From contig JAFQMA010000044.1 of NCBI GenBank assembly GCA_017414535.1, forward strand, positions 53,125-117,124: 64,000 nucleotides of DNA. The letters are read 5' to 3'. The stretch comes from Clostridia bacterium. GTDB lineage: Bacteria > Bacillota > Clostridia > Oscillospirales > SIG627. A program made the translations under genes and the position numbers. Each line of letters starts with the position of its first letter. The stretch's first letter is position 1. Below, piece by piece: positions 6,197 through 23,499 of the stretch. The notes under the pieces were generated by a model that saw only the letters and a list, made by a program, of their open reading frames with translations, made no database searches and was not told the DNA's origin.

Positions 6197-6251
6197 CACC
6201 TTTTCTCCTCTTTTGCATAAACTGCAATAAGACTGAATGAGGGAGGATCTC

Positions 6252-7099: not shown

Positions 7100-8281
7100 T
7101 TAGACGAGTCGGCCCTTGTAGAGGGTATGCACCTCGCCGTTGGAGGTGCGAGCATAAAATTCAACGCGGGTCTCCTTGCCGCAGAGGGCTTCCCAAGCAG
7201 CGGGATCGGCTCCCAGCTCCTCCAGGGTGATCTCCTTCTTGCGGAAGGTCTTGGCAAGGTTCAGGGGATAATGCTCCTTCTTGATGAGATTGCCTTCCTT
7301 ATCACGGAAAACAAGCTTCAAATCGGAGAACACGTAGTTGGAGCCGAACATTTCGGTAAGAAGCTGGCCGGGCGTTGCCTTGGCAGGCAGCTCGGGAATC
7401 TCCAGCTTCACGGGAGAGACGGGCTTCTCGCCGCAGAGCTCGGGGATGGTAAAGGGCAGATAGCCCTTTTCGATGAGATAATCAAAGGTGTAGCAGCTTT
7501 CATAGCCGGGGGCCAGATAGATGAACACGCCGTTTTCCTGCACGCCAATGCTTCTCATGCCCGTGGTCTGATGCTGAACGGTGATGGTGCTGGTGCCGAG
7601 GATCTTGCCGTTTTCGTCACGCTTGATATCGGCAGGACCTGCCACCATCATCACGTGAGCATTGGTACCGGTCACGAGGCCGTCGGCCTTTTTAACCATA
7701 GCATAAGCCTCGTACATGCCCTCGGGCGTAACGGCGCGGCAAAGCTCAACGGTGCTGATATCCGCCAGACTGTTGGGAGCGGAGAAGGGGGGCGCGTTGT
7801 ACACCTCGTTCAGACGCTGGCCCAGGTATCTGGCACCGCGGGGAGGATTGATATAGGCGGTGCCGCCCCAAATAATGGTGTTGGATACTCTCGCCCAGCC
7901 CCAGAAGGAATCGGCGGAGCACTGGTTACCGAGAATGGTGCCTGCTCTGTCCCCCATGGAAAGCGTATCCATGATACCCGTTTTTTCATCGTACCACTCC
8001 TCCATCAGCTGATAAAGGTTGGAGAAGGTAGAGGATACGTAGGGCATGCCTGCATACACGTGCTGAGGCTGGTAGAGATCCTTATCGGCACGGATAAGAA
8101 TGGGAGAGTTGGGTTTCCATGCAAAATTCAGCTGATAATGCATAAAATCCCAGCAAATATCGCGAAGCTCGTCCTCGCTCATTCCTTCGTGAGCAACGGG
8201 AATGGCATTGATATCATCCCAGGTCAAGGGCTTTGCCAGGGACTCGCAGTCCCACGTGGGGGGATAGTTTTTCTGTTCCAT
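7100..8281 (-). CDS. array paralog A: putative Cys-His hydrolase module without signal peptide
   Basis: Carries the family motifs YAGMPYVSSTFSNLYQLM, GNQCSADSFWGWARVSNT, ADGLVTGTNAHVMMV, VQHQTT and GYLPFTIPEL. ATG 8281 with a GAAAGGA Shine-Dalgarno is preferred, because TTG 8347 lies upstream of the likely -10. Confidence 0.8.
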   Translation of the reverse strand: MEQKNYPPTWDCESLAKPLTWDDINAIPVAHEGMSEDELRDICWDFMHYQLNFAWKPNSPILIRADKDLYQPQHVYAGMPYVSSTFSNLYQLMEEWYDEKTGIMDTLSMGDRAGTILGNQCSADSFWGWARVSNTIIWGGTAYINPPRGARYLGQRLNEVYNAPPFSAPNSLADISTVELCRAVTPEGMYEAYAMVKKADGLVTGTNAHVMMVAGPADIKRDENGKILGTSTITVQHQTTGMRSIGVQENGVFIYLAPGYESCYTFDYLIEKGYLPFTIPELCGEKPVSPVKLEIPELPAKATPGQLLTEMFGSNYVFSDLKLVFRDKEGNLIKKEHYPLNLAKTFRKKEITLEELGADPAAWEALCGKETRVEFYARTSNGEVHTLYKGRLV

Positions 8282-8319
8282 AACAATTCCTTTCGGGAGC
8301 AGTTTTTTAGTGTTAGTAT

Positions 8320-8328
8320 ATTTTAGCA
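8320..8328 (-). promoter_or_regulatory. extended -10 element (TGCTAAAAT) for paralog A
   Basis: The minus strand reads TATGCTAAAATATACT, related to the motifs upstream of paralogs C and G. Confidence 0.45.
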
Positions 8329-8405
8329 TATTCTTTTTTCCTTGCAAAGGCTTTTTTGCAAAAAAAGGAAAAAAGCACGCAAAAAGCGTACTTTTTTCGA
8401 GTGTT

Positions 8406-9722
8406 TTATTTTACCAGCTCACCGCTGTAGATCTGAATCTGGTCACCCTTGCCCGTGCGGCCGAGAATGGTGATGGTATAGCCCTTGCCCTCGTAGGCGG
8501 AATAGAGATCTCTGCGGAAGCCCATGGCAGACAGGGTCATCTCTCTGTCGCGGAAATGATCTCCGCTGTAACTGCAGTGGATCTGGCGGGAAAGCTCCTT
8601 ACCCTCGGCGTCGGTGATCACGACGGTCACGTCGGACAGAGCGTAATTTGCGGTTACGGTAGCAAGGATCAGTTTGGAAATGGAGACCTTATCGGTAGTG
8701 ATACTGAAGGTCATTTCCGTGGGCTCTACAGGATCGGTACCGATGAGCTCTGCCAAGGTAAAGGGCAGATAGCCCCCCTCCATCAGGTGCTGGAAGGTGT
8801 ACTGGGAGCGCCAGCCGGGAGCCAGCTCAATGGCGGTGCCGTCGGACTGCTGAGCAGGAGCCCACTCGCCCGTGGTCTGATGCTGAACGACAACGTAGCT
8901 ATCGTCTGCAATGGTTCCGTTGGCATTATACTTCACCACGGCATCCTCATAGACCATCATCACGTGGCCGGAGCCCTTGTTGTTATATACAAGTCCGTCG
9001 GCGGCCAGAAGCTGAGCGTAGCCTTCGTAGACCACGTCCTTACCCATGGCACGGAGGATGTCTGCAGTGCGAAGATCATTGTAGTTGGCAAGATCGGGGT
9101 AATTTGCCTTCATGTAGGAAGAAAGGCGATTGCCGCGGAAAATGGCACCGCGGGACTCCGTAATATTGGAGGTGCCGCCCCAGGTCATGGTATTGGATAC
9201 TCTCGCCCAGCCCCAGAAGGAGTTGGCGGAGCACTGATTGCCCATGATGGTCTCCACGTTTTTGCCCATGGCCTTAATATCCATCATGCCGTTTTCGGTA
9301 TCGTAATACTTCATAAGCTGATAGAGGTTATTGAAGGTAGAGGATACGTAGGGCATACCGCCGTAAACGTCGCCGTACTTATGATCCTTTTTGCGGATAT
9401 GAACGGTCTCGTTGGGGGTCCAGGGGAAGGTGAGCTGCAGCTCCATAAAATCAAGGCAGATCTGGCGGAGTTCACGCTCAGTCATATTTTCATTGGCAAC
9501 GGGAATGGAATTCAGTTTTTCCCAAGTAAGGGGCTCTGCTACCTTGGTATCGACCTTTTCCTGCTCCCCGGTAACGGCAGGCTCTTCCGTAGCGGCAGGA
9601 GCCTCGGTCGTTTGAGTGGCGGTCTGCTCCCCTTCGGTAGCAGTGGAAAGGCTTTCACCGCCGCAGGAGGCGAGGGGCAAAAGCATGAGGGTTGCGAGAA
9701 GAAGTGCAATGAGTTTTTTCAT
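8406..9722 (-). CDS. array paralog B: lipoprotein with putative Cys-His hydrolase module
   Basis: Signal peptide plus lipobox MKKLIALLLATLMLLPLASC and an acidic T/E-rich linker. Motifs YGGMPYVSSTFNNLYQLM, GNQCSANSFWGWARVSNT, GSGHVMMV, VQHQTTG and GYLPFTLAEL. Confidence 0.85.
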   Translation of the reverse strand: MKKLIALLLATLMLLPLASCGGESLSTATEGEQTATQTTEAPAATEEPAVTGEQEKVDTKVAEPLTWEKLNSIPVANENMTERELRQICLDFMELQLTFPWTPNETVHIRKKDHKYGDVYGGMPYVSSTFNNLYQLMKYYDTENGMMDIKAMGKNVETIMGNQCSANSFWGWARVSNTMTWGGTSNITESRGAIFRGNRLSSYMKANYPDLANYNDLRTADILRAMGKDVVYEGYAQLLAADGLVYNNKGSGHVMMVYEDAVVKYNANGTIADDSYVVVQHQTTGEWAPAQQSDGTAIELAPGWRSQYTFQHLMEGGYLPFTLAELIGTDPVEPTEMTFSITTDKVSISKLILATVTANYALSDVTVVITDAEGKELSRQIHCSYSGDHFRDREMTLSAMGFRRDLYSAYEGKGYTITILGRTGKGDQIQIYSGELVK

Positions 9723-9764
9723 ATTTTTGATCCTTTTCTATCGTGATGTGATCGATGCATTTTC

Positions 9765-11243
9765 TCAGGTGGACAGCGTTCCGGTGTAAACGACCTTTTC
9801 AAAGCCCGTAGAAATGCGGGCAGAGATCTCGATGGTATTGCCGTTGGCCGCGTGATTATTCAGTGTAGCAAGATCAACGCCCAAATTGCGCTCGGCATTG
9901 GAGCCGCCGTTATTGATATAAAGAGGCGCTTTTCTCTTGATCTGACCGGTATAGCGGACGCCGTCGGAAATGGCAACGAATACTTCTTCCAAAACAGTGT
10001 TGCCGTGCTTGAAGCGAATGGTCACATCGGAGATCATATAATTGGACTTGACGTAGGCGTTCTTCAGCTGATCCACGGTAACGGTGGCATTCTGATGAGA
10101 GAAGAACAGCTCATAATTCTCAACGGGAGAATACTTGGGGTGGGTCTTGGGCAAGAATTCGGGAATGGTAAAGGGAACGGAGCCGTCGTTATAGGCCTGT
10201 TCGTAGGTCATCGAATCGTAGTCACCCGTGTGTGCGCCTGCGGCGGCATTGCGGTATGTCTGGTGCTGAATGTAGATCTTCTTGGCGGCGGTATCCACGT
10301 GGTGGACCATCATGACGTGACCTGCACCTGCGTTGTAGACCAGACCGTCACCCTTCTGAAGCTTATCGTAGCCTGCGAAGGCAGCTTCCTTCCCTGCCCC
10401 GTGAAGCACGGTCTTACTGGTCACGGATTCGGTATATTTATCAAGGTTGGGATAATTCTTGGCAAAATAATCGTACAGAGCGTCACCCAAAGGAATGGCA
10501 CCGTAATAGGGCGTTACGGTGGCGGTACTGGTCCAGCCCACGGTATTGGACACTCTGGCCCAGGACCAAAGGGTAGAGGCAGAGCACTGATTGCCGAACA
10601 CGGACTTCACGTCCCCATTGGAGGCGGCACTCATGGCATTGATGTCCATGACGCCGTCCTTATAGTAATGCATGACCTGATAGAGGTTATTGAAGGTGGA
10701 TTCGCTATAGGGCATACCGCCGTAGAGGGTATTGGTCTTATAGGTAACGTTCTTGCCCTCTTTTGCCTTAAAGGAAGCGTTGGCCTTCCAGCCGAAATTC
10801 AGCTGGAGTGCCATGAAATCCCAGCAGATATCACGCAGCTTCTCCACGGACATGGAGGCGGTGGCCTGAGGGAGGGCATTGATATTGCTCCAAGAGAAAT
10901 TCTGGATGATCTGGGGGGTATAGGTCTGCTGAGAGCCGTAGCCCGCTGAGGGGATGGAGGTGCTGGGCTTGGTAGTAGTCACGGGAGGCTTGGTGGTGGT
11001 CGTAGGCCTCTTTGTGGTGGTAGAGGGCTTTTTCGTCGTGGTGGAAGAAGAGGGGTCGGCATCGGGCTGTTCACCCGTAGCGGGCTCTCCGGTTCCGTTC
11101 TCCCCCGTTCCTTGTTCTTCGGTTCCCGTTTGAGCGGCAGTCTCCTGCGAGGCGGGATCGGTGGGAGCAGGTTCTGACTTGGCACAAGCGATGGCAACAA
11201 GGAGCATGGAAAGCACCAGCAAAATAGAAATCAGTCTTTTCAT
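9765..11243 (-). CDS. array paralog C: lipoprotein with putative Cys-His hydrolase module
   Basis: Lipobox VAIAC and a Thr/Lys/Pro linker. Motifs GNQCSASTLWSWARVSNT, GAGHVMMVHHVD, IQHQT and GSVPFTIPEF. AAAGGTG Shine-Dalgarno. Confidence 0.85.
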   Translation of the reverse strand: MKRLISILLVLSMLLVAIACAKSEPAPTDPASQETAAQTGTEEQGTGENGTGEPATGEQPDADPSSSTTTKKPSTTTKRPTTTTKPPVTTTKPSTSIPSAGYGSQQTYTPQIIQNFSWSNINALPQATASMSVEKLRDICWDFMALQLNFGWKANASFKAKEGKNVTYKTNTLYGGMPYSESTFNNLYQVMHYYKDGVMDINAMSAASNGDVKSVFGNQCSASTLWSWARVSNTVGWTSTATVTPYYGAIPLGDALYDYFAKNYPNLDKYTESVTSKTVLHGAGKEAAFAGYDKLQKGDGLVYNAGAGHVMMVHHVDTAAKKIYIQHQTYRNAAAGAHTGDYDSMTYEQAYNDGSVPFTIPEFLPKTHPKYSPVENYELFFSHQNATVTVDQLKNAYVKSNYMISDVTIRFKHGNTVLEEVFVAISDGVRYTGQIKRKAPLYINNGGSNAERNLGVDLATLNNHAANGNTIEISARISTGFEKVVYTGTLST

Positions 11244-11285
11244 AATACACCTTTACTTTTTTCAATAGTGATTTGAACTAAGTAC

Positions 11286-11294
11286 ATTATAGCA
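11286..11294 (-). promoter_or_regulatory. extended -10 element (TGCTATAAT) for paralog C
   Basis: The minus strand reads TATGCTATAATGTACT, about 45 nt upstream of ATG 11243. Confidence 0.5.
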
Positions 11295-11363
11295 TAATTT
11301 CTAAGGTTAAAATACAAAAAAAGTGTGAATTTTGGACAAAAAATTGCACAATCTTGCGACGCT

Positions 11364-12806
11364 TTATTTTACTAATTTGCCCGAATATACGTCAAAGACC
11401 TCACCCGTGGAAATGCGAACACGAATGCGAACCGTATGCTGGCCGTCGGCGTAGGGAGCGAACTGCGCCTCAGTAGCACCCAAATGCTCCCCCTTACCTC
11501 CCTTGAGCCTCAAAGGCGTGCGGGACTGAGCCTGCCCTGCGAAGAGGTAATAATTGACGGAGGAGGTATAGAAATACTCCGCTTTTTCTTTTCCGTCGGC
11601 ATCGGAAACGGTGACAGTTACGTCGGAGATCATATAAGAGGAGGAAACGGTGGCGGACAGAAGCTCGCCGACGGTGGCGGTGGCAACGCTGTGGGAGAAG
11701 GAGACGCTTCCCTGCTCCACGGGAGACTTACCCACAAACTCGGGGATGGTAAAGGGAATATAACCGTCGCTGAAGAGCTTGGCAAAGGAAACGCCCTTAT
11801 AGGCGCCGGGATGGGTGGTACCCGACTTTTCACGACCGTAGGTCTGCTCCTGCAGGTAGACCGTTTGGGTATCCAGATCCACGTGGTGTACCATTCTCAC
11901 GTGGCCGCCCGCCGCCTTATACTGGACGAGCCCGTCCGCCTTTTGCAGGAGAGCGTAGGCCTCAAAGACGGTCTTTTGGCCTGCGGACTTTAAAATATCG
12001 GCGGTATAGATCTTATCGGCACTGTAATTTTTCAAATTGGGATAATAGGCCTTCAGGTGGGCGCTGAGCGCATCCCCAAGGATCACGGCACCGCGATGGG
12101 GCAAGACCTCGTCGGAGCCGTCCCAAGCGACCTGATCGGACACCCTCGACCACGCCCAAAGCGTAGAGGAGGAGCACTGGTTGGAGAACTGGGCGGAAAC
12201 GTCGTTCAGCTGGTCAAAATTATCGCGAATGGCTGTAGCGATGCCGTTGGCCTTCAGTCTTTCAATATCCATCTCACCCGTTTGATCGTTGTAATAGTAC
12301 ATCATCTGGTAGAGATTCGTAAAGGATTTGTGGCAATAGGGCATGCCGCCGTAGAGAGTACCAGCACGATAGGCCACGTCCTCCCTCTCGCGGGAGGTAA
12401 AATCCGCATTGGGCGTCCAGCCGATATTGAGCTGAAAGGCCATGAATTCCCAGCAGATATCCCGCAGCTGCTGCACGGACATAGAGGCGTTGGCAATGGG
12501 AAGGGCGTTTACCTGAGTCCAAGTCAGCGGATTTCGAATGGTAGGGGTATAGTCTGAGGAGGGGGTCTCCTCCGTCAGAGGCGGATCCTCTTCCTCGGTA
12601 TTCTTTTCGGCAGTCTCCCACTCCTCCGTTTCGGAATCGGGCATCTCCTCCTCGGTAAAGGTGTCCTCCTGCTCCGTTGCGGGCGAGGTCTGCGTTTCCT
12701 CAGCAGTGCTTTCGGGAGGAAGAGTGACCAGCTCCTCGGCGGTGCCGCAGGCGGCCGTGGTAAGAAGAAGGGACAACAGAAGGATCAGAGATAGGATCTT
12801 TTTCAT
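11364..12806 (-). CDS. array paralog D: lipoprotein with putative Cys-His hydrolase module
   Basis: Lipobox TTAAC and a strongly acidic linker. Motifs SNQCSSSTLWAWSRVSD, AAGGHVRMVHHVD, LQEQT and GYIPFTIPEF. Confidence 0.85.
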   Translation of the reverse strand: MKKILSLILLLSLLLTTAACGTAEELVTLPPESTAEETQTSPATEQEDTFTEEEMPDSETEEWETAEKNTEEEDPPLTEETPSSDYTPTIRNPLTWTQVNALPIANASMSVQQLRDICWEFMAFQLNIGWTPNADFTSREREDVAYRAGTLYGGMPYCHKSFTNLYQMMYYYNDQTGEMDIERLKANGIATAIRDNFDQLNDVSAQFSNQCSSSTLWAWSRVSDQVAWDGSDEVLPHRGAVILGDALSAHLKAYYPNLKNYSADKIYTADILKSAGQKTVFEAYALLQKADGLVQYKAAGGHVRMVHHVDLDTQTVYLQEQTYGREKSGTTHPGAYKGVSFAKLFSDGYIPFTIPEFVGKSPVEQGSVSFSHSVATATVGELLSATVSSSYMISDVTVTVSDADGKEKAEYFYTSSVNYYLFAGQAQSRTPLRLKGGKGEHLGATEAQFAPYADGQHTVRIRVRISTGEVFDVYSGKLVK

Positions 12807-12843
12807 AAGAGGTTCTCCTTTTCGGCAAAATCGTACGAAAGGG

Positions 12844-12866
12844 AAAAGCAGCCCGCGGGGGCTGCT
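12844..12866 (-). terminator. terminator-like hairpin downstream of paralog E
   Basis: AGCAGCCC-gcgg-GGGCTGCT. Only 4 T follow on the minus strand, so it may be leaky. Confidence 0.5.
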
Positions 12867-12872
12867 TTTTTA

Positions 12873-14429
12873 TCAGGCTAAGGTTCCGTTATAAACAGTG
12901 AATACCTCACCCGTGGAGATACGCACGTCCACGCGCACCTGATAGCCTTTTCCGACGTAGGCTTCATATTGACTGCTCGTAGCGCCGAGATTCTTATTTC
13001 TGTCGGAATGCTTCAGAGAAACGGCGATCTTGTCTGCCGACTGAGCAGCATAAAGGGACAGATTTACGGTAGTGGTATAAAAATGCTTTCCAACCACCTC
13101 ATTGCCGTTCATCACCTTCACGGTGACATCGGAGATCATATAGTTGGAATCGATCTTGGCGGCAAGAAGCTGGGTTACGTTCACGGTAGCACCGCTGTGG
13201 GAGAAGGTGGCGAAGCCGTTTTCAACGGGGCTTTGCCCGACAAATTCGGGGATGGTAAAGGGGATGGCTCCTCTTTCCAAAAACCAAGCAAAGGTGAAGT
13301 AACGGTAGGAGCCACCATGAAGCCCCACCTTGCCCACGCCGCGGGTGGTCTGATCCTGAATGTAGATGCGCTGATTTGCAACATCAACCTTGTGCACCAT
13401 CATCACGTGGCCACCGGAGCCGCCGACCTTTCCCGCATTGTATACGAGGCCGTCTGCCTTCTGGAGCATGGCATAAGCAGCGTAGACCGTTTCCTTGGGA
13501 AGGGAGGCAAGAAAGCTCGCGGTAGAATCGGTAAACTGGGTAACGCTGCCGTATTTGCTCTTAAACGCTTCGTGCAGATCACCGAGAAATATGGCCCCGT
13601 TCACGGGCAAAACGTTGGAGGTGCCGTTCCATGAAATGGCATTACTGACCCTCGACCAAGCCCACAGAGAGGAGGCGGAGCACTGGTTACCCAGCTGAAG
13701 AGCAACCAGATCCTTCTGTCCCGAATCCTTCAGCGTCGCGGCGACGGTATTGTTCTGCAGAGCGGTCAGATCCATATATCCCGTAGCAGAATCGTAATAG
13801 TACATAAACTGATAGAGATTATTAAAGGTAGAGGAGCTGTAGGGCATGCCGCCGTACAGCGTATTGACCTTATGTACCTGCTTATTACTTCCCTCCATGG
13901 CCGTAAAGCCGGCGCTCACCTTCCAGCCCACGTTCATCTGCAGTGTCATAAAATCCCAACAAATGTCGCGCAGCTCTCCCGCTGACATTCCTTCTTTTAC
14001 CACAGGCACAGAGTTTACCTGCGACAGGGTCAGATTATTTTTGATGGCAGGGGTATAGCTCTCTCCCCGTCCGTAGGCGCCGGAGGTGGTGGGCGCAGCG
14101 GTCGTGGTAACGCGTGTAGTGGTGACGGGAGGCTTCGTGGTAGAGGTAGATGCGGTAACATCGACAGGGTCATCCTCAATGGGCGTCTCCTGCGTATCGA
14201 CGGGGGCATCCTCAATGGGCGTCTCCTGCGTATCGACGGGGTCGAGTTCCTTCGTCTCTTTCTGCTCCTCCTGCGTTTCGGAGACAGATTCGGCAGGATC
14301 GGTCTCAACGGCGGATGTAGCATGAGACCCGCTCTCTTTCGCTTCACTTTCCTCCGCCACGGTGCAGGAAATGAGTGCAATGAGAACGGAAACGGTGAGC
14401 AAAAGAGCAAGAATGCGCTTGAAATTCAT
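12873..14429 (-). CDS. array paralog E: lipoprotein with putative Cys-His hydrolase module
   Basis: Lipobox ALISC; the linker carries a duplicated PVDTQETPIED unit. Motifs GNQCSASSLWAWSRVSN, GGSGGHVMMVHKVD, IQDQT and GAIPFTIPEF. Confidence 0.85.
   Translation of the reverse strand: MNFKRILALLLTVSVLIALISCTVAEESEAKESGSHATSAVETDPAESVSETQEEQKETKELDPVDTQETPIEDAPVDTQETPIEDDPVDVTASTSTTKPPVTTTRVTTTAAPTTSGAYGRGESYTPAIKNNLTLSQVNSVPVVKEGMSAGELRDICWDFMTLQMNVGWKVSAGFTAMEGSNKQVHKVNTLYGGMPYSSSTFNNLYQFMYYYDSATGYMDLTALQNNTVAATLKDSGQKDLVALQLGNQCSASSLWAWSRVSNAISWNGTSNVLPVNGAIFLGDLHEAFKSKYGSVTQFTDSTASFLASLPKETVYAAYAMLQKADGLVYNAGKVGGSGGHVMMVHKVDVANQRIYIQDQTTRGVGKVGLHGGSYRYFTFAWFLERGAIPFTIPEFVGQSPVENGFATFSHSGATVNVTQLLAAKIDSNYMISDVTVKVMNGNEVVGKHFYTTTVNLSLYAAQSADKIAVSLKHSDRNKNLGATSSQYEAYVGKGYQVRVDVRISTGEVFTVYNGTLA
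14171..14242 (-). repeat. in-frame 36-nt tandem duplication inside the linker of paralog E
   Basis: 14171..14206 and 14207..14242 differ only at the last base. They encode PVDTQETPIEDA / PVDTQETPIEDD. Confidence 0.9.
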
Positions 14430-14490
14430 CGCTTAATACCTCATAATTTTCTTTCCTCCATTATACCGAAAAGGAGCGATATAAGTCAAG

Positions 14491-14512
14491 AAAAAAAGCG
14501 GCTTTCGCCGCT
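14491..14512 (-). terminator. rho-independent terminator after paralog F
   Basis: AGCGGC-tttc-GCCGCT followed on the minus strand by a T-run (A-run 14491..14497 on plus). Confidence 0.75.
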
Positions 14513-14528
14513 TTTTCTTTCATGCATT

Positions 14529-15947
14529 TTATACCAGTGTTCCCTGATAGACGGTGAAGACCTCACCCGTTGAAATACGCACGTCCATTCGGACGGTATA
14601 GCCCTGTCCCGCAAGAGCGCTGTATTGGGTCTCGGTGGCACCGAGATTGCGGGATGCGGTGCCGGACCTCAGGCATACGGTCTCCTTATTTTCCGTTTGC
14701 GCGCCGAACAGGGCGCCATTGACGGTGGTGGTATAGAAATACTCCTTGACGATCTCTTCCCCGTTCAACACCTTTACGGTAACGTCGGAGATCATGTAGT
14801 TCGAGCTGATACCGTGGGCGAGAAGCTGATCCACGGTGACCTCGGAGCCCTCGTAGCCAAAGGAGCACATGCCCGTTTCTACGGGATCCTTGCCCACAAA
14901 TTCCGGGATGGTAAAAGGAATATAGCCGTTTTTATAGAGATACGAAAAGTCAAAGGAGCGATAGGCCGCGACGAACGCGCCACCCTCGTCACTGCGGCGC
15001 ACGGTCTGATCCTGCACGTAAACAAGCTGTTTATCCACGTCCACGTGATGCACCATCATCACGTGGCCGCCCTTATTATAATAGGCAAGGCCGTCCGCCT
15101 TCTGCAGGAGCTTGTAGCCCTCGTAGACGGCAGGTTCTCCCGCACCTGTCAGAATGTCCTTGGTGGCAATGCCGGACTTGTGATAGTCCTGCACGTTGGA
15201 ATAATTCTGCTTATGGTAAGCGGCCAGGGCATCGCCCAGAATGATGGCTCCGTTGCGAGGCATGATATTAGAGGTTCCGCCCCAGCTGATGGCGTTGGAT
15301 ACTCTGGCCCAGCCCCACAAAGAGGAGGCAGAGCACTGATTCCCTACCTGCACGGCAACCAGATCCGTCTGTCCCTTGTCCTTGAGCGAGGAGGCAACGG
15401 AATTCTTGCGCAGGGCAGACACATCCAAGGTGCTCGTTTCGGAATCGTAGTAATACAGGAACTGATAGATATTATTGAAGGTGGAGGAGCTGTAGGGCAT
15501 ACCGCCGTAGACGGTGCCGGTCTTGTAGGTGAGCCATTTGCCGCCCTCGTTGGAGGCGTAGCTGTAGTTTACCTTCCACGCCACGTTCATCTGGAAGGCC
15601 ATAAAATCCCAGCAGAGATCACGCAGCTGCTCGGCGGACATGGTGTAATTGGCGATGGGAAGGGCGTTCACCTGCTCGATGGTCAGGTTGTTTTTCAGAA
15701 CGGGAGTATAGTAATCCCATTTACCGTAATCCACCGACGGCTTCAGCGTCACCGGGGGAACGGTGGTCACGGTGGGAGCCTTTGCGGTGGTGGCGGGGGC
15801 CTCCTCCGTGGTAAGCTCTTCCGTTTCCGTCCACTCCTGGGTGGCGGTAGCGGGAGCCGTAGTCTCAGGCTCCTCCTTGGCACAGGCGATCATGGTAATG
15901 AGAAGCGCCATAGACAGAAGGAGGGCAAGGATGCGTTTTGCGTTCAT
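14529..15947 (-). CDS. array paralog F: lipoprotein with putative Cys-His hydrolase module
   Basis: Lipobox TMIAC. Motifs GNQCSASSLWGWARVSN, NKGGHVMMVHHVD, VQDQT and GYIPFTIPEF. Confidence 0.85.
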   Translation of the reverse strand: MNAKRILALLLSMALLITMIACAKEEPETTAPATATQEWTETEELTTEEAPATTAKAPTVTTVPPVTLKPSVDYGKWDYYTPVLKNNLTIEQVNALPIANYTMSAEQLRDLCWDFMAFQMNVAWKVNYSYASNEGGKWLTYKTGTVYGGMPYSSSTFNNIYQFLYYYDSETSTLDVSALRKNSVASSLKDKGQTDLVAVQVGNQCSASSLWGWARVSNAISWGGTSNIMPRNGAIILGDALAAYHKQNYSNVQDYHKSGIATKDILTGAGEPAVYEGYKLLQKADGLAYYNKGGHVMMVHHVDVDKQLVYVQDQTVRRSDEGGAFVAAYRSFDFSYLYKNGYIPFTIPEFVGKDPVETGMCSFGYEGSEVTVDQLLAHGISSNYMISDVTVKVLNGEEIVKEYFYTTTVNGALFGAQTENKETVCLRSGTASRNLGATETQYSALAGQGYTVRMDVRISTGEVFTVYQGTLV

Positions 15948-16014
15948 GTTTTCTTACCTCGCGATTCATCTTACTTATTATGCATTATACAAGCGAAAGC
16001 TCCTGAAAGTCAAG

Positions 16015-16035
16015 AAAAAAGCGGCTTTCGCCGCT
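16015..16035 (-). terminator. rho-independent terminator after paralog G (same module as 14491..14512)
   Basis: Identical hairpin AGCGGC-tttc-GCCGCT, embedded in the duplicated ~35-nt segment AAGTCAAGAAAAAAGCGGCTTTCGCCGCTTTTT. Confidence 0.75.
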
Positions 16036-16046
16036 TTTTTCTTATT

Positions 16047-17411
16047 CTATGCCAAGGTACCGCTGTAGGCCTCCAGCACCTCACCCGTGGAAACACGGGC
16101 AAGAAGCTTTACGGTATAGCCCTTTCCCTTGAAGGGAGTAAACTTGGTCATGGAAACACCTGCACTGACAGAGGCGTCGGAGCTGACCATATAAAGCTCC
16201 TTCATAGTGCACTGACCGCCGAACTGCTCTACGGAATTGAGGGAATACTGCTCTTCCATAAGAAGAGTATCGCCGTCAAAGATCTGTACGTAAACGTCGG
16301 AGATCGCATAATTTGCCTTCATTTTGGAGGCAAGGATCTGCATAGTGGAAATTTTCTCTCCCGTAAAGCTGAAGGTAACGGTAGCATCCTCCACGGGGTC
16401 CTGACCGACAAATTCGGGGATGGTAAAGGGAATGTAGCCGTTTTCGTAGGCATAATCGAAGGTCCATTCGGCGCTTCTGCCCGGTGCGGGGAGATATTCC
16501 ACTCCTGCCGCACCCGTTTCGGGAGTACGGCCGCCGGGGGCCTGATGCTGAATATAGATCTTCTGTGCGGCCACGTCCACGTGGTGCACCATAACGATGT
16601 GGTTGTGGTTACTGGTGACAAGGCCGTCTGCCAGCTTCAGCTGAGAATAGGCCTCGTTCATGGCGCTCTTCCCTGCCTTTTCCACGATATTGAGGGTAGC
16701 GGTCTCACCCTCGTAAACGGAGGGATTATTGAAGGGAGCGGCCTGCATAACGGCGTTGAGCCGAGAGCCGAGCACGATGATGCCGCGGGAGGGTACCACG
16801 TAATTGATACCGCCGAAGCGGGTGGTGTTGGTGACGCGGCGCCATGCCCAAAGCGTGGAGGAAATGCACATGCTGCCGATCTTTTCACCGGGGTTTTCGC
16901 CCATAGCCGCGGTATTGATGGCACCGGTCTCGCTGTTATAGTACTGCATGACCATATAAGGGTTATTGTAGCTACCTGCGGTATAAGGCATACCGCCGTA
17001 GGCCAAGCCTGCATCGTAAGGGCGGGTATTGCCCGTACGGGAGGTGGGGAGCTTAAAGGAGGAATTGGGTACCCAGCGGAAGGCCAGGGTCAATTCCATG
17101 AAATCCCAAACGATCTGACGAAGCTGATTTTCACTCATTCCTTGTTTTGCTACGGGAATGGCATTGATATGTCCCCAGGTGAGAAGGTCGCCGGGGTTCA
17201 GGGGTGTGGTTGCAACCTCGGTGGAAATAGCACTCTGCACGGGGCCTGACTGCACGGGCTCCGTTTCGGGCGTAGGATCGGAGGTGGTGGCAGGAGCGGT
17301 AGCGGTCTGCTCCGCGGTGTTCGTTTCCTCCCCTCCCAGCTCCTCGGAGGAGCAAGCAGCCAAGGGAAGGAGCATAACAAGCGTCAAGAATAAAGCAATA
17401 AAGCGTTTCAT
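16047..17411 (-). CDS. array paralog G: lipoprotein with divergent putative Cys-His hydrolase module
   Basis: Lipobox PLAAC. Motifs YGGMPYTAGSYNNPYMVM, GSMCISSTLWAWRRVTN, NHNHIVMVHHVD, IQHQA and GYIPFTIPEF. Confidence 0.85.
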   Translation of the reverse strand: MKRFIALFLTLVMLLPLAACSSEELGGEETNTAEQTATAPATTSDPTPETEPVQSGPVQSAISTEVATTPLNPGDLLTWGHINAIPVAKQGMSENQLRQIVWDFMELTLAFRWVPNSSFKLPTSRTGNTRPYDAGLAYGGMPYTAGSYNNPYMVMQYYNSETGAINTAAMGENPGEKIGSMCISSTLWAWRRVTNTTRFGGINYVVPSRGIIVLGSRLNAVMQAAPFNNPSVYEGETATLNIVEKAGKSAMNEAYSQLKLADGLVTSNHNHIVMVHHVDVAAQKIYIQHQAPGGRTPETGAAGVEYLPAPGRSAEWTFDYAYENGYIPFTIPEFVGQDPVEDATVTFSFTGEKISTMQILASKMKANYAISDVYVQIFDGDTLLMEEQYSLNSVEQFGGQCTMKELYMVSSDASVSAGVSMTKFTPFKGKGYTVKLLARVSTGEVLEAYSGTLA

Positions 17412-17492: not shown

Positions 17493-17522
17493 AAAAAAAG
17501 CACCCGAAAAATTTCGGGTGCT
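17493..17522 (-). terminator. rho-independent terminator ending the giant-gene/small-ORF transcript
   Basis: 11-bp stem AGCACCCGAAA-aa-TTTCGGGTGCT, followed on the minus strand by TTTTTTT. Confidence 0.85.
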
Positions 17523-17529
17523 TCGATCT

Positions 17530-17673
17530 TTATTCAGTAATGACACGAATGGCGCGAAAGGGCTGAAAGGGCAGGTCCTGACTGAGTCCAAGCTCTGCCA
17601 TGACCTTTTCCGTCCTGAAATCGCATACTTTGAGAGCAGGCGCGGAATAGTCTTTATTCTTTTCTTGAATCAT
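17530..17673 (-). CDS. unannotated 47-aa ORF (MIQEKNKDYSAPALKVCDFRTEKVMAELGLSQDLPFQPFRAIRVITE)
   Basis: Below the ORF-track size cutoff; translated by hand. AAAGGAGGAAAAGGAA lies directly upstream of the ATG. It starts 18 nt after the giant-gene stop and its own stop is 8 nt before a strong terminator. Confidence 0.6.
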   Translation of the reverse strand: MIQEKNKDYSAPALKVCDFRTEKVMAELGLSQDLPFQPFRAIRVITE

Positions 17674-17691: not shown

Positions 17692-20600
17692 TCAATCTAC
17701 TAAGATGCCGTTGTAAACGGTAACCAGCTCACCGGTGGAAAGCTGAGCCCTAACAATGACCGTGTGATTTCCGTCGGCGTAGGGGGTGTACTGACCTTCG
17801 GTGGCGCCCAGCGTCCAATTCCAAGGTACGCCGGTACCGATCTCGGTGGGATCACCCAAATACACGTTACGCTTATCACGCATCTGATAGGTGTACTGAT
17901 AGTTGTTGAAGACACCGTTGGTGTGATCGATATAACCGGTGGTGGAATAGAAGTATTCCTCCGTCACGGCAGATCCATTCTTGATCTGCACCACGAGAGC
18001 GGCGATGGGATAGTTGCTGTCAACGGAGTACACGTGGAGCAGCTCGTTTACGGTGACGGTGCTTGCCGTGACCTTTTTGTTTGTATCGTTAGCGACGATA
18101 TAATTGACATAGCTCTTTTCCACGGGAGAATAAAGCTCGTGGTCGGTGGGCAGGAATTCGGGAATGGTAAAAGGAATATAGCCGGTGTTATAGAGGTTTT
18201 CAAAGGTGTAGGATCTGATACCGCCCGACTGCTCAATGACCGTGACCTTACTGCTCTTCAGGGTGGAGCTGAGGGTGACGCCTACGACCATTCTGACGTG
18301 GCCCCCACCCGCGCTCTGGGTTACCGCAGAGCCGTCTGCAAGGACGGTGCCGTAGTTTTGAACGAGACCGTCGCCCTTTTGCAGGAGCTGATAGGCCGCA
18401 TAAACGTCGTTTGTGCCAACAGACGCAAGGAAGTCCGTCGTTGCGAGAGAGAAGTGAGCATCGCCGTTATAGGTGGTCAGCGCCTTTGCTCTCAGCGCAT
18501 CGCCCAGATAGTAAGCACCGAATTGAGGCAGAACGTTGGATGTGCCGGTCCATCTTACCTGATCGGACACGGACGACCATGCCCAGGCAGTGGAGGCGGA
18601 GCACTGATTACCGAAGGCTACCTTACCCAGATTTTCAGCCGCCGTATTTCCGTACTGACTCAGCAGATCCGAAACGCTGTTCAGCGTAAAGCTTGAGCCA
18701 TTGTAGTAATGGAGGAAGGTATACAACGAGTTATAGGACGAGGTTGAGTAGGGCATACCCTGATAGACCGTATTTGCGGTGTGGGAAATAGCATCGTTAC
18801 CAAGGAAAGTATTGAACGCGGTGGGTGCCTTCCACTTAACACCCATGGTCATATTCATGGTCTGGAAGGCGATCTCACGAAGCTCGGAGGGGGTCATATA
18901 ATCCGTTGCAACGGGAAGCGAATACTTCGTGCTTGAGGGATCGGGAGTCAGCTGACCGTTGGCATCCTGATAAACGGGAGTGCCGGGGGTATAAGAAAAG
19001 TCCTTCAGAGCGGAAACCAGCTTACCCGTGGTAAACTCGCGCTTCTGACCGTTGGCAAGGCGAACGGTGAGCTTTACGGTATAGCCCATGCCGACGAAGG
19101 CATCGTAGTCCTCAGGCTCGGCACCAAGGTCGGTATGAACGTCATCGGTCCTCAGAGAAACGATGGCAGCGCTCTTACCGTGGTAGTTGACCTGATAGCC
19201 CCACAGATCGGCGGAGCTGAGATTATAGAAGAGCTTTGCTACCTGCGCGGAGCCGTTCATGATCTGTACGGTCACGTCAGAAATGGCGTGAGTAGAGGCG
19301 ATCTTGGCCTGAAGCAGATCCGAAACAGTCAGATCTGCCGTGCCCTGTGCGGAGAAGGTGGTGGTATCGCTCTGCACCTTGGAGGGATTGGAATAAACCT
19401 CTAAGGTAAAGGGCACGTAGCCGTGCTCAAAGAAGAATTCAAAGGAATAGGCAGAGGCATAGCCGGGAGCAAGATGAAGATCCGTTCCGTTGTAATCGGA
19501 GATGGGACGGTCGCCCGTGGTCTGATGCTGAACGTAGATCATACCGTTTTCCACGTCCACGTAATCCACCATCATAAAGTGGCGGTAAGCGTGAACGGAG
19601 GTGGCGACGCCGTCACCGTGCTTGAGCTTTGCATACGACTGCACCATGCCGCGGTAGCCGATCTCGTCACAAAGATCCTTGGTGGAGGGAAGGGTATCAT
19701 CTGCGGTACCGTTGCCCCATTTGTTGGCATTGACAAGCTCGGAATGGGCGGCAAAGGCATCCCCGACGGCGCCGAGGAGGATCGCACCTCTGCCGGGAAC
19801 GAAGGTAGTAGTAGCGGCCCAGCGCACGTCATTGGACACTCTGGCCCAAGCCCAATAGGAGCCGGACAGGCAATGGTTACCCATAACGGCACCCACGTTA
19901 GACATGGAGGCGGTATCCATCACGCCGGTGGACTCGTTGTAATAGTGCATAGCCTGATACAGGCCGGCATAGCCACCTGATACGTAAGGCAGACCGCCGT
20001 AGAGCTTACCTGCCGTGTAATTACGGGTGGTAGCGCCTGTGTAGAGGCCGAAATTGCTGTTGGGCTTCCAGCCGAAATTAAGCTCCAAGGTGAAGAAGTT
20101 GTAGGCAAGATCGCGAAGCTGATCACCTGACATGGAGGAATTGGCAACGGGGAAGGAATCAAGCTTTGCGCTCGTCAGGGTCTCACCGGGGGTAAAGGCG
20201 ACGTTGGGGGAGGTATAGGCGGCGGAGATCAGATCTCCCTTATAAGCCAAGACCTCTTCTCCGTGGGCAGACTGCACACGAAGCTCCACGGTATAGCCCA
20301 GACCCTCGTACTGCTCCAGGACGGGAACGAGGCCGGTCTCCCCTACTCCGTAAACAGAGGCACCCATGCCTACGCCGAGCTGAAGGCTCTTAATGGCATA
20401 AGACTCTGCCTTGGGGAAATAAACGTAGCGGTAGACCTCGCGGCCTGCAGTGTTGCGCACGGTCACGGTTGCGTGGGACATATTATAGTTGGAGGTCACG
20501 GTCTGAGAAGCAAATTCCTGCGCGGTAACGGCGGATTTTTTCAGATCGGACTGCAGCTGCAGAGCCTCCACGTCGTCGGTGCCGTGAAATTCGGGAAGGC

Positions 20601-22962
20601 TGAAGGGCAGGTAGCGCGTGGCATCGCGCACACCCGTGCTTTCGCCGTTTTCGTCGTAGATCACGTTGCCGAAGGCCAGCACGTAATAAGGCGTGCTGCT
20701 CACGGGTACGACGCCGTTGGCGTGATAGGTGATATCAACACCGTTTTCCTGCTTCACAGTGGTGGTCACGCTGGAGCCGGACTCATCGATAAAGTAAACG
20801 CGGCTTTGGCGGCGATCTTCATTCTTTTCCACGCGGGTAACGATGCGGACGTGACCGTTGGAGCCGTCAGAATAAATGAGACCGTCACCGGGCTTGAGCT
20901 GATCGTAGGCATCGTAGAGGACCTCAACGTTTGCCCTTTTCTGGGCTTCTACGATGGTGTAAACGTTATAATCGGGAGTAAAGCTGTAAACTCCGTCCTT
21001 GTTTTCCAGCTTCGAGGAATCGATCGCGTAGTCTCCGAGCTTTACGGTGCCGTTTTGGCCGGGCACGATGGAAGAGGTGCCGGCGAAGGAAAGCGCATCG
21101 GATACACGGGACCAGGCCCAGAAGGCGGAGGCGGAGCACTGGGCACCGATAATATCGTAAGCAAGACCCACGTCCGTTCCGCGATCGGACAGGCCGAACT
21201 GCTTCACCTTCAGGGTGCCCGTGTAGGGATCGTACAGCTCCATGGCCTTATAGATATTGCCGTAGCTGGAATTGCAGTAGGGCAGGCCGCCGTAGACCGT
21301 TCCTGCATTCAGGGGCCATTGAGACGAGGGGCCTGCGTAGTGGTTAAAGCTTGCATCGGGGGTAAAGGCCAAGGAGAGCTGAAGGGTCATCAGATCCACC
21401 ACCAGAGCACGAAGCTCATCCTCCGTCATTTTGGAGGAGGCAAAGGGCAGGATGGCAAGGCTCTCCTTATAATCGTAGGCGTTATCCACGTCGTTGGAGA
21501 AGTTCATGGCGGAGGCGCCGTAATTCATCATGCGATCCATCAGCTCCCACAGATCCTCTTCTGCCGTCAAGAGCGAATTGGAAACGTAGGATTCCGCACT
21601 GAAGCGGAGGGTATCACTGACAGGGGTGCCGTTTTCATCGCAGACGGTAAAGAGATAGGGGCGGAACAGATCGCGGGCACCCATATCAAGCTTTGCCTGA
21701 TAGCCGTAGGGGGTGACGCCAAGTGCTTTGTTTTCCACGGTAGTTACGGCGTTGCCGTCCTCGTCGGTAACGACCACCTTGTAGTTACCGTCAACCTCAG
21801 TGCTGAAATAGAGGAAAAGGGCAATGTTTTCACTGAGGTTCAGATTGGAGCCGAGGAAGCTTGCCTTGGGAGAGGAAACGGTGCGATAAGCAAGATCCTG
21901 AACGGAATCGTAATTGTAGCGTCCCGCGGGGGTAGCCAGTGCCAGGAAATCTGCCGTCAAGCCCTCGGTCACGGCAGGAGAGGTTACAAGGGCATCGGTC
22001 TTATAGGATACGTACTCCTGAGCGGCGGCACCGTAATAGAGGATATCCATGCAAAGTCGCTTAAAATCCTCTACCGTGCCCGCGCCGTGAGCGGCAGTGT
22101 ACCAATCCGTATCACCCTCGGCCAAGCGCTTGGTGCCCTCTGCACAGTACTGCGCCACACTGAAGGTCTTTTCCACGGTATAGGTCCTACCGAGCTTTGC
22201 GGAGAGAACAGCCGTGACGGGCTCACCCAAATAGTAGGGGGCAATATTATCAAAGGAGAAAACGAGATAATCGCCCTCTCGTCTGCAGGCAGACGTAAAG
22301 GTCTTACCCAGGAAACGAAAATCAACCTTTACGCCGGTAAAGCCGCAGTCCAAAACATCTGCGGAAACGTAATACTCCAGCGTAAAATCATCCTGCAGGG
22401 AGATGCTGGAGCCGTAGAAGTCAAGCTCGCCCTCCACACCGTTAAATACGATAAATTCCCAGCCCTTTGCCGCGGCAAAGGCCTGAGCGGTGGAGCCCTC
22501 CAGACCCATGATAACGGGAGCGCAACCGGGTGCAAAGGCATTTTCATCGATCACGACGGTGGCGGAATGGAAGACGGCACGCTCCAGGGAGGGATACTCC
22601 TTAAAGGCATCGGCCGCCACGGCGGTCACCTCGTAGGTCTTCATACGAACGGCTACCGTCGCAGGAACAGACACCACGTTATAATGCAGGTTGGCGCCGG
22701 TCACAGTGGCGGTTTTTTCCACTTCGTTGAAGGAATAGAAGATCTCGTCGTCAAAGGGGCGGATGACGGTCTCGTCACCAACTTCCGAGGGGGGGAGAAG
22801 ATCGTCTACGGTGATATCCGGCTCGGGAAGAGGCAGAAACCCCGTTTCGTCTCCCACGATGCCTTCGCTGTCAAGCAAGATGGCAAACACGCCCAGTGGG
22901 AGCATGCTCATCACCAAGACCAGCGCAAGAAGAGTCAGCAGCACTTTTTTCATGCTTTTCAT
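17692..22962 (-). CDS. giant secreted protein: signal peptide + LRR-like region + unknown region + three tandem family modules
   Basis: 1756 aa. Type-I signal peptide MKSMKKVLLTLLALVLVMSMLPLGVFA. Cys motifs GAQCSAS (C609), GNHCLSG (C1031) and GNQCSAS (C1454). His motifs SNGHVRIV, YRHFMMV and GGGHVRMV. Confidence 0.9.
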   Translation of the reverse strand: MKSMKKVLLTLLALVLVMSMLPLGVFAILLDSEGIVGDETGFLPLPEPDITVDDLLPPSEVGDETVIRPFDDEIFYSFNEVEKTATVTGANLHYNVVSVPATVAVRMKTYEVTAVAADAFKEYPSLERAVFHSATVVIDENAFAPGCAPVIMGLEGSTAQAFAAAKGWEFIVFNGVEGELDFYGSSISLQDDFTLEYYVSADVLDCGFTGVKVDFRFLGKTFTSACRREGDYLVFSFDNIAPYYLGEPVTAVLSAKLGRTYTVEKTFSVAQYCAEGTKRLAEGDTDWYTAAHGAGTVEDFKRLCMDILYYGAAAQEYVSYKTDALVTSPAVTEGLTADFLALATPAGRYNYDSVQDLAYRTVSSPKASFLGSNLNLSENIALFLYFSTEVDGNYKVVVTDEDGNAVTTVENKALGVTPYGYQAKLDMGARDLFRPYLFTVCDENGTPVSDTLRFSAESYVSNSLLTAEEDLWELMDRMMNYGASAMNFSNDVDNAYDYKESLAILPFASSKMTEDELRALVVDLMTLQLSLAFTPDASFNHYAGPSSQWPLNAGTVYGGLPYCNSSYGNIYKAMELYDPYTGTLKVKQFGLSDRGTDVGLAYDIIGAQCSASAFWAWSRVSDALSFAGTSSIVPGQNGTVKLGDYAIDSSKLENKDGVYSFTPDYNVYTIVEAQKRANVEVLYDAYDQLKPGDGLIYSDGSNGHVRIVTRVEKNEDRRQSRVYFIDESGSSVTTTVKQENGVDITYHANGVVPVSSTPYYVLAFGNVIYDENGESTGVRDATRYLPFSLPEFHGTDDVEALQLQSDLKKSAVTAQEFASQTVTSNYNMSHATVTVRNTAGREVYRYVYFPKAESYAIKSLQLGVGMGASVYGVGETGLVPVLEQYEGLGYTVELRVQSAHGEEVLAYKGDLISAAYTSPNVAFTPGETLTSAKLDSFPVANSSMSGDQLRDLAYNFFTLELNFGWKPNSNFGLYTGATTRNYTAGKLYGGLPYVSGGYAGLYQAMHYYNESTGVMDTASMSNVGAVMGNHCLSGSYWAWARVSNDVRWAATTTFVPGRGAILLGAVGDAFAAHSELVNANKWGNGTADDTLPSTKDLCDEIGYRGMVQSYAKLKHGDGVATSVHAYRHFMMVDYVDVENGMIYVQHQTTGDRPISDYNGTDLHLAPGYASAYSFEFFFEHGYVPFTLEVYSNPSKVQSDTTTFSAQGTADLTVSDLLQAKIASTHAISDVTVQIMNGSAQVAKLFYNLSSADLWGYQVNYHGKSAAIVSLRTDDVHTDLGAEPEDYDAFVGMGYTVKLTVRLANGQKREFTTGKLVSALKDFSYTPGTPVYQDANGQLTPDPSSTKYSLPVATDYMTPSELREIAFQTMNMTMGVKWKAPTAFNTFLGNDAISHTANTVYQGMPYSTSSYNSLYTFLHYYNGSSFTLNSVSDLLSQYGNTAAENLGKVAFGNQCSASTAWAWSSVSDQVRWTGTSNVLPQFGAYYLGDALRAKALTTYNGDAHFSLATTDFLASVGTNDVYAAYQLLQKGDGLVQNYGTVLADGSAVTQSAGGGHVRMVVGVTLSSTLKSSKVTVIEQSGGIRSYTFENLYNTGYIPFTIPEFLPTDHELYSPVEKSYVNYIVANDTNKKVTASTVTVNELLHVYSVDSNYPIAALVVQIKNGSAVTEEYFYSTTGYIDHTNGVFNNYQYTYQMRDKRNVYLGDPTEIGTGVPWNWTLGATEGQYTPYADGNHTVIVRAQLSTGELVTVYNGILVD
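17695..19011 (-). other. giant protein family module 3 (aa ~1318-1756)
   Basis: LPVATDYMTPSELREIAFQTMNMTMGVKW, YQGMPYSTSSYNSLY, GNQCSASTAWAWSSVSD, GGGHVRMV, GYIPFTIPEF and LSTGELVTVYNGILV. Confidence 0.8.
19012..20223 (-). other. giant protein family module 2 (aa ~914-1317)
   Basis: FPVANSSMSGDQLRDLAYNFFTLELNFGW, YGGLPYVSGGYAGLY, GNHCLSGSYWAWARVSN, GDGVATSVHAYRHFMMV, VQHQTTG and GYVPFTLEVY. Confidence 0.8.
20224..21474 (-). other. giant protein family module 1 (aa ~497-913)
   Basis: LPFASSKMTEDELRALVVDLMTLQL, YGGLPYCNSSYGNIY, GAQCSASAFWAWSRVSD, GDGLIYSDGSNGHVRIV and YLPFSLPEF. Confidence 0.8.
22444..22740 (-). other. BspA-type leucine-rich-repeat-like segment of the giant protein (aa ~75-173)
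   Basis: VSVPATV..YEVTAVAADAFKEYPSLERAVFHSATVVIDENAFAPGC..GSTAQAFAAAKGWEF resembles LRR_5-type surface-protein repeats. Recognised by eye only. Confidence 0.45.
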
Positions 22963-23042
22963 TTTGTTCCTCCGTCTGTCTTTCGACCGATTGTATTTTA
23001 TATGGGGGTCATATCAAAAGAAATAAACAAAAACACGATTTT

Positions 23043-23072
23043 AGTATATCATAAGCAAGGCGCTTATGTCAA
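23043..23072 (-). promoter_or_regulatory. near-consensus sigma-A promoter of the giant gene
   Basis: Minus strand: TTGACA (23072..23067), 18-nt spacer, TATACT (23048..23043). About 70-nt leader to ATG 22962. Confidence 0.65.
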
Positions 23073-23168
23073 CTATGCACAAACAGAAAAACCGCGTAAA
23101 GCATTTTTTCTTATTCCCCCTCTTTTTTTAAAAATTCAGCAAGAAACAGGTTATTTCAAGAAAAACAC

Positions 23169-23197
23169 TTGACAAACATGCATCGGGGGGTTATACT
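23169..23197 (+). promoter_or_regulatory. near-consensus sigma-A promoter of the mini-lipoprotein gene
   Basis: TTGACA (23169..23174), 17-nt spacer, TATACT (23192..23197). GAGGAG Shine-Dalgarno before ATG 23236. Confidence 0.65.
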
Positions 23198-23465: not shown

Positions 23466-23499
23466 AAAAAAGAGAGACGGATACCGTCTCTCTTTTTTT
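23466..23499. terminator. bidirectional terminator between convergent genes
   Basis: AGAGAGACGG-ata-CCGTCTCTCT, flanked by an A-run and a T-run. Confidence 0.85.

Follow-up and report, generated by a model that had tools for sequence, protein, structure and literature searches.

The NlpC/P60-CHAP cluster comprises mostly cell-wall enzymes and has as its hallmark a 'GD' motif on the first strand; relatives that act off the wall include glutathionylspermidine amidase and the LRAT acyltransferases (PMC10318531). In the CHAP domain of LysK (CHAPK), Gln53 and Cys54 belong to a helix and His117 to a strand, with Glu134 and Asn136 at His+17 and His+19 (PMC4126393). In Ruminococcus flavefaciens, the extracellular protein RflaF_05439 (PDB 4EZY) carries two tandem modules of the NlpC/P60 superfamily and an X-dockerin. 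Its modules, with Tyr71, Cys109, His215 and Gln230 and with six antiparallel strands after a helical domain, were recognised as NlpC/P60-like by structure and not by sequence (PMC3573020). Here we compare with these systems a protein of 1756 amino acids (aa) encoded in the metagenome-assembled genome (MAG) of a Clostridia bacterium of the Oscillospirales. Its coding sequence, from the ATG start to the stop codon inclusive, occupies positions 17692..22962 on the minus strand of the 64,000-nucleotide (nt) stretch that was analysed (the window; assembly GCA_017414535.1, contig JAFQMA010000044.1, positions 53,125 to 117,124 of the forward strand), and the features of the gene given below are on the minus strand as well. 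The best explanation overall, which we consider fairly probable, is that of an exported cysteine hydrolase with three modules, fused from paralogues that belong to an adjoining array.

Modules and candidate active sites

An earlier, sequence-only reading of this open reading frame (ORF) gave no strand; the minus strand is set here, and the deposited NCBI protein of identical sequence is entitled 'MAG: hypothetical protein IJC84_04955 [Clostridia bacterium]'. That reading had proposed a type I signal peptide (…LPLGVFA↓I; aa 1-27, 22882..22962), and inspection of the translation by eye agrees: the N-terminus runs MKSMKK-VLLTLLALVLVMSML-PLGVFA↓I and lacks a lipobox Cys. Likewise, the three full modules with C-terminal tails that it described were all placed by BLASTP against neighbouring genes and by a hidden Markov model (HMM) built from the modules, with limits at aa ~487/497-913, 914-1317 and 1318-1756. 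Each consists of a Cys/His domain of ~280-300 aa and a beta-sandwich tail of ~115-145 aa. In module 1 (aa 497-913; 20224..21474), the catalytic-like part spans aa 497-797 and the tail aa 798-913, and the key residues are Tyr562, Cys609, His704 and Glu727. In module 2 (aa 914-1317; 19012..20223), the corresponding parts are aa 914-1193 and 1194-1317, the latter a beta-sandwich, with Tyr993, Cys1031, His1128 and Gln1147. In module 3 (aa 1318-1756; 17695..19011), they are aa 1318-1611 and 1612-1756, with Tyr1405, Cys1454, His1555 and Gln1578.

Among 326 modules of the family, whose mean identity is ~25%, His and Tyr are each retained in 324, Cys in 323 and Gln (at His+19) in 319; the Asp of an (A/G)DG motif is kept in 322, an Arg in 319 and the Gln preceding the Cys in 214. 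All three modules of the window protein retain the conserved set, with Glu727 in the Gln position of module 1, which is the most diverged of the three and has insertions. An AlphaFold model of module 2 (predicted local distance difference test, pLDDT, 91.8; 119-sequence alignment) begins with a helix and a small sheet that bear the invariant YGGxPY. The invariant Cys118 in module numbering (Cys1031 of the protein) begins helix 118-126, after which come a helical insertion and then six antiparallel strands. The nearly invariant (A/G)DG is at or just before the first strand (205-208), ahead of the invariant His215 (protein His1128) that begins the second strand (215-223), and Gln1147 of the protein is just past the third. 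A separate C-terminal beta-sandwich of ~120 residues forms an immunoglobulin (Ig)-like tail. From this model and the invariant residues we infer a papain-like layout, namely, Cys helix, (A/G)DG strand, His strand and Gln at His+19. The 'GD' hallmark of the NlpC/P60-CHAP cluster is present, the Asp being kept in 322/326 modules at or before the strand that precedes the His strand, as is the residue layout of CHAP, with Cys at the N-terminus of a helix, His on a strand and Gln at His+19.

The likeness to CHAP (PF05257, MEROPS C51; LysK CHAPK) extends to a Gln-Cys pair at the helix start, a 'GD' strand succeeded by 'GHV' on the next strand, and a polar residue at His+19, which is Asn136 in LysK and Gln in the module. 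However, Cys and His are ~97 aa apart in the module as against ~63 aa in LysK, because of the inserted helical subdomain. The module also adds the N-terminal helix/sheet part with its invariant YGGxPY, has an obligatory Ig-like tail, and uses Gln rather than Glu/Asn as the third residue. With NlpC/P60 (PF00877; E. coli MepS, NlpC, MepH and YafL) the module shares the order of elements, from the Cys helix through the GD strand and the His strand to the polar residue; in both, many members are lipoproteins, and cytoplasmic as well as surface members occur. Unlike NlpC/P60, where a His is found at ~+11 from the catalytic-strand His, the module has Gln at His+19, and a Pfam match is absent.

The nearest described analogue is RflaF_05439, to which homology is unproven. 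Both proteins are extracellular, come from a related group of gut/rumen Clostridia and have tandem modules, predicted to be papain-like in the window protein, with a Tyr/Cys/His/Gln site, ~100 residues from Cys to His, and a helical domain plus six strands. The two modules of RflaF_05439 are, however, 45% identical, consistent with internal duplication, and dockerin-anchored, whereas the three of the window protein are 25-31% identical, were fused from separate paralogues and have an Ig-like tail each. A comparison can also be made with staphylococcal Atl and LysK (CHAP plus amidase), which are multi-catalytic cell-wall hydrolases. As in these, several domains of hydrolytic type, here predicted, are combined with non-catalytic binding domains on a single secreted chain. 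In Atl and LysK different folds are joined; here there are three diverged copies of one fold, along with seven free-standing copies in the same genome.

Fusion history, paralogues and the N-terminal part

Whether the fused modules are each other's closest relatives had been posed as a check, and they are not. In an identity matrix with nearest-neighbour analysis, the three are 25-31% identical to one another. When the orthologues in the close relative P0002 are set aside, module 1 is closest to the single-module proteins P0007-P0009 (~40%), module 2 to the gene at 7100-8347 (42%) and module 3 to the gene at 12873-14429 (41%). Since each module is thus nearer a single-module protein than its fused partners, the fusion joined paralogues that had already diverged. 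The linkers between modules start with a 'YTP/YTSP' element, the same as stands before the module in the free lipoproteins, which indicates that the fusions retained the modules in full while signal peptides and low-complexity linkers were lost.

A search for orthologues by module number, also proposed earlier, found one close relative with four modules, P0002, whose fourth module is closest to the gene at 11364-12806 (55-56%). The window follows module 3 of this relative up to the VYxGxL codons at the gene end (junction at 17692..17720), and then continues with the end of its module 4 and the downstream DNA, so that the absence of the fourth module from the window is a clean in-frame difference. 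As to its direction, loss in the window lineage would be the simpler reading. In other lineages multi-module proteins were built by internal duplication: P0125 and the triple protein of locus L013 have modules 1-2 at 68% identity, P0124 has modules 3-4 at 58%, and in P0185 and P0006 the figure is 50-53%. Multi-module forms have therefore arisen repeatedly. The suggestion that the protein is a frozen record of gene fusion after tandem duplication holds as to fusion, of paralogues already diverged, but not as to frozen, given the four modules of a close relative. We hold the architecture and history of the three-module protein with high confidence.

The seven adjoining single-module genes reported by the sequence-only reading are indeed there, downstream and on the same strand as the large gene (7100..17411, minus strand), at 16047-17411, 14529-15947, 12873-14429, 11364-12806, 9765-11243, 8406-9722 and 7100-8347. 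Six of the seven encode lipoproteins, with (A/S/L)(A/S)C following a hydrophobic stretch, and have linkers that are acidic or rich in Thr/Pro; the last (7100-8347) has no signal peptide. An exhaustive profile search, counted in 50% clusters, gave 1117 family representatives at E<=1e-3, of which 335 pass E<=1e-30; Pfam domains and informative names are lacking throughout. When 266 family proteins were sorted by a crude signal-peptide test, 171 came out as single-module lipoproteins, a further 54 had a signal of another kind, and in 28 no signal was seen. With few exceptions the module stands at the C-terminal end, which is also its place in many proteins of 900-2500 aa. In GTDB the hosts are MAGs of Eubacteriales and Oscillospiraceae, Faecousia among them. 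Same-strand tandem arrays occur in four other MAGs (5, 6-7, 6 and at least 9 genes), and three further contigs from other samples have 2-8 family genes each. In L013 (1-18062), from another genome, two large proteins, each with one module at its end, precede a three-module protein that has neither signal peptide nor N-terminal extension; five single-module genes come after it. P0124 (1796 aa, four modules) has an N-terminus of the camelysin/TasA type (Peptidase_M73).

The part of the window protein that precedes the modules differs from what had been described. Its head (aa 28-175; 22438..22881) is lineage-specific, being common only to the close relative P0002. The resemblance of this head to leucine-rich repeats (LRR) of the BspA type found no support: Pfam gives no match to aa 28-179, LRR_5 (PF13306) included, even at E<=10, the AlphaFold pLDDT is <45 over the head, and inspection by eye shows two degenerate LRR_5-like units ('..V..I...AF..') at most. 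The region of ~320 aa that follows (aa 176-496; 21475..22437) had been considered to be without recognisable content. It is instead an internal duplication, two copies of a ~150-aa unit (A vs B by hhalign: 97%, E 8e-11), each predicted to consist of a beta-sandwich and, after it, helices that end in YG(A)AA..Y (model pLDDT 60-80 in the sandwiches). The N-terminal AlphaFold model as a whole is poor (pLDDT 50), with only generic tandem matches of the Ig/fibronectin type III (FnIII) kind in Foldseek. At the extreme C-terminus of three surface proteins, P0003-5 (1776-1921 aa), this pair of units recurs (E ~1e-24); one of the three proteins carries an InlB B-repeat. Because the unit sits at the C-terminal end of such giant surface proteins, it is probably a surface-retention or binding device, and could serve the three-module protein in place of the lipid anchor that its paralogues have.

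The ORF is a real gene, is conserved and has a product that is predicted to be Sec-exported. The fused ORF is also present in independent assemblies, in which the protein is identical or 86% identical. One locus, L001 (Logan SRR27608055, an independent assembly), is syntenic with the window at 85% DNA identity and has the fused ORF. Between the two genomes the ratio of nonsynonymous to synonymous substitution rates (dN/dS) comes to 0.17 in the head and 0.12 in the mid region, and modules 1-3 have values of 0.19, 0.12 and 0.15; every segment is therefore under purifying selection. Assembly collapse, named earlier as the finding that would undo the fusion, is excluded as far as sequence data go, since modules that share just 25-31% identity do not allow repeats to collapse.

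Mechanism, substrate and rival explanations

If the modules are cysteine hydrolases, the following picture emerges. The protein would be exported and its signal peptide cleaved after VFA by signal peptidase I. The mature N-terminus would be non-catalytic, with the short lineage-specific head followed by the duplicated beta-sandwich/helix unit, which would retain or target the protein at the surface. Three independent thiol active sites would then attack amide/peptide bonds via a thiol acyl-enzyme, most probably in a cell-envelope or peptidoglycan-type polymer. Since the modules are as diverged as separate paralogues, each would have its own specificity, with three specificities on one chain. 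The protein originated by in-frame fusion of diverged neighbours in the tandem lipoprotein array, with loss of signal peptides and linkers, and the number of modules probably still shifts through recombination at the conserved module end. A papain-like hydrolase mechanism seems likely from the predicted layout. The peptidoglycan-type substrate is speculative and put forward only tentatively. Multivalent action on a polymer, one of the two possibilities raised by the sequence-only reading, would be compatible with three intact predicted active sites, all under purifying selection.

Several results weigh against this picture, among them comparisons with known families. Pfam, NCBIfam and PHROGs, applied to the protein, to the paralogues and to 105 members of the family, gave only signal-peptide and low-complexity noise besides CHAP below threshold. 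The best Pfam CHAP score in the protein is 15.2 bits, short of the gathering cut-off of 26, and CHAP matches at E<1 occur in just 2/105 family members, on the His segment. Among PDB sequences, the family profile found none at all and three single-sequence searches none of relevance (E<=10). The structural comparison suggested earlier was equally negative, with no significant relative of the module in PDB or BFVD: in Foldseek the catalytic part has no match at E<=1e-3, and the matches listed are mostly weak Ig-like ones to the tail, with one weak match to a Peptidase C51 protein. The structure 4EZY was found neither by the profile or single-sequence searches of PDB (E<=10) nor among the 50 Foldseek matches listed. 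In hhalign, eight staphylococcal phage CHAP domains align weakly (probability 14.6%, P 0.0019, 33 columns), with GD, His and Q/N in register and the Cys region outside the alignment, and E. coli MepS/NlpC/MepH/YafL align at a probability of 2%, over 12 columns at the GD motif. At the level of sequence the link to CHAP thus appears weak and that to NlpC/P60 undetectable, and membership is unproven. On the favourable side are the register of GD, His and Q/N with CHAP, the CHAP matches below threshold on the His segment and the weak match to the Peptidase C51 protein. The description of the modules as putative hydrolases is plausible in view of the retention of Cys/His/Gln and the predicted papain-like topology, but no known family was matched significantly.

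Features of the family also count on the negative side. About 15% of its proteins, including all two-module ones, seem to be without a signal peptide, so that the substrate need not be extracellular. P0124 has lost Cys and/or His in three of its four modules; modules can therefore exist without catalysis, and P0124 itself looks like a naturally occurring pseudo-enzyme with the multi-module architecture. Over the loci examined no operon partner is conserved; the one exception, PGA_cap, is confined to a single group of loci that are syntenic.

Of the rival explanations, the one that fares best, although we consider it rather unlikely, retains the fold class and changes the substrate, the modules carrying out hydrolysis or acyl transfer on molecules with amide or ester linkages outside peptidoglycan. 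These could be glycoproteins and peptides from the host or the diet, polymers like poly-gamma-glutamate, or small thiol/amine conjugates, and the array would represent foraging specificities. Five to at least ten diverged paralogues per locus suggest diversity of substrate over housekeeping turnover of the wall, and members of cytoplasmic appearance exist; glutathionylspermidine amidase and the LRAT acyltransferases offer precedents within the cluster (PMC10318531), which is, however, dominated by wall enzymes (PMC10318531). A PGA_cap gene (CapA-like, PF09587, E 1e-44; 386-388 aa, no N-terminal signal) directly follows the family array, on the same strand, in three other MAGs, at L007 (6143-7303), L008 (10292-11458) and L010 (12422-13582), which also favours a substrate off the wall. 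These loci, however, are largely syntenic with one another, L008 and L010 sharing flanking genes, and PGA_cap is absent from the window. As a general partner of the arrays PGA_cap was rejected, being absent also from the other loci examined; the neighbours of the array vary from locus to locus.

That the modules mainly bind, making the protein a multivalent surface adhesin and not an enzyme, is very unlikely. The losses of Cys and/or His in P0124, the Ig-like tail on every module and an N-terminal part made of Ig-like sandwiches would suit an adhesin. However, Cys, His, Gln and Tyr are kept in 98-99% of the 326 modules despite the low mean identity, all three modules of the window protein keep the conserved residues, and where exported proteins have only one invariant Cys, catalysis accounts for it better than a disulfide.

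A role in sporulation-linked remodelling of the envelope, spore cortex or coat is, if anything, still less probable. The array is bracketed by sporulation genes: on one side, downstream, by those for a SpoIIQ-like M23 peptidase (5461-6168) and YabQ (4529-5083), both on the plus strand, and on the other, upstream, by those for SipL (SPOCS plus LysM; 23505-25067) and sigma-K (25164-25916), both on the minus strand. In L008 and L010, YunB precedes the arrays. Such genes are, however, scattered through the genomes of spore-formers, where the bracketing may be a coincidence. Further, the neighbours are unrelated in other loci, and the promoters of the three-module gene and of two paralogues resemble housekeeping sigma-70/SigA sites.

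Finally, the notion that the long ORF is an artefact of assembly or annotation (collapsed or concatenated repeats, or read-through of separate genes) can be dismissed as scarcely credible: the source is a MAG and tandem paralogues are difficult to assemble, but the amino-acid identity of the modules is below what repeat collapse needs, the same fusion recurs in independent assemblies, one at 85% DNA identity with an additional module, dN/dS is low in all segments and junctions, and two- to four-module proteins are found in other lineages too. A polymorphic toxin/immunity system was also considered and rejected, there being no small immunity-like genes between members of the array, most of which are lipid-anchored to the producer.

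Transcription unit, neighbouring genes and implications

The three-module gene has a promoter-like site of the sigma-70 type (TTGACA-18 nt-TATACT with TG before the -10; 23043..23072, 11/12 match). This had been called the best promoter in the array; the site exists and is the only top-scoring one with an extended -10 TG, but two paralogue promoters equal it on the hexamers (11/12). The -10 ends 80 nt before the ATG, and the leader is therefore ~70-75 nt long (22963..23035, its start inferred from the position of the -10), in line with the ~70 nt claimed. A ribosome-binding site (RBS), GGAGG (22969-22973), precedes the ATG by 6 nt. A small ORF of 47 aa with its own GGAGG (17530..17673; MIQEKNKDYSAPALKVCDFRTEKVMAELGLSQDLPFQPFRAIRVITE) comes after the stop codon and ahead of a hairpin resembling an intrinsic terminator (12-bp stem plus T run; 17497..17524), which closes the transcription unit. 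An NCBIfam scan of this ORF gave no match. Conserved in L001 at 10510-10653 (dN/dS 0.21, dS 0.72), it probably encodes a genuine small protein and shares a transcript with the three-module gene, the two together having the appearance of a transcription unit of their own.

Very long shadow ORFs are antisense to the family genes, including those at 14625-17249 and 20263-23172 on the plus strand (874 and 969 aa). Purifying selection on the minus-strand frame points to the minus-strand genes, and not these, as the real ones. Divergent from the three-module gene, on the plus strand, is an ORF for a 71-aa lipoprotein (23236-23451; LLSC↓APEE, Thr/Pro-rich, with a WAFWTEH end), followed by a bidirectional terminator-like hairpin (23466-23498). 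In L001 a 71-aa gene is called at 3523-3738, matching this ORF by position. Right after the array, an ORF of 272 aa on the plus strand (6237-7055) has a Cys-rich, acidic C-terminus and no match in Pfam or NCBIfam.

The novelty here lies in the family and not in the principle: the family is large, lacks annotation and is a structurally divergent relative of known Cys-His hydrolases. A wider reading, which taken as a whole we regard as unlikely, would make the family a new, structurally distinct branch of the papain fold, deployed by gut Oscillospiraceae as surface-anchored 'cassettes'. In such a scheme, the arrays may supply diverged specificities with which to harvest or remodel peptide-linked polymers, e.g. 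foreign peptidoglycan, recombination at VYxGxL may add or remove modules in frame and so yield secreted enzymes of two to four modules, and the duplicated N-terminal unit may be an unrecognised surface-retention domain of giant surface proteins.

More than 1000 clusters at 50% identity are without annotation, and 5-10 copies per locus occur in common gut and rumen Clostridia. The present gene is a handy entry point to them, having three diverged and intact predicted active sites on one secreted chain, and its natural four-module variant shows how such proteins gain or lose modules. The practical gains would be a new Pfam-type family, a defined catalytic motif, so far as the predicted site is catalytic, and constructs for biochemistry. 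If the modules are cysteine amidases or peptidases, they would make up a large unexplored set of surface enzymes, with possible effects on the turnover of peptidoglycan, on signalling to the host by muropeptides or on nutrient foraging.

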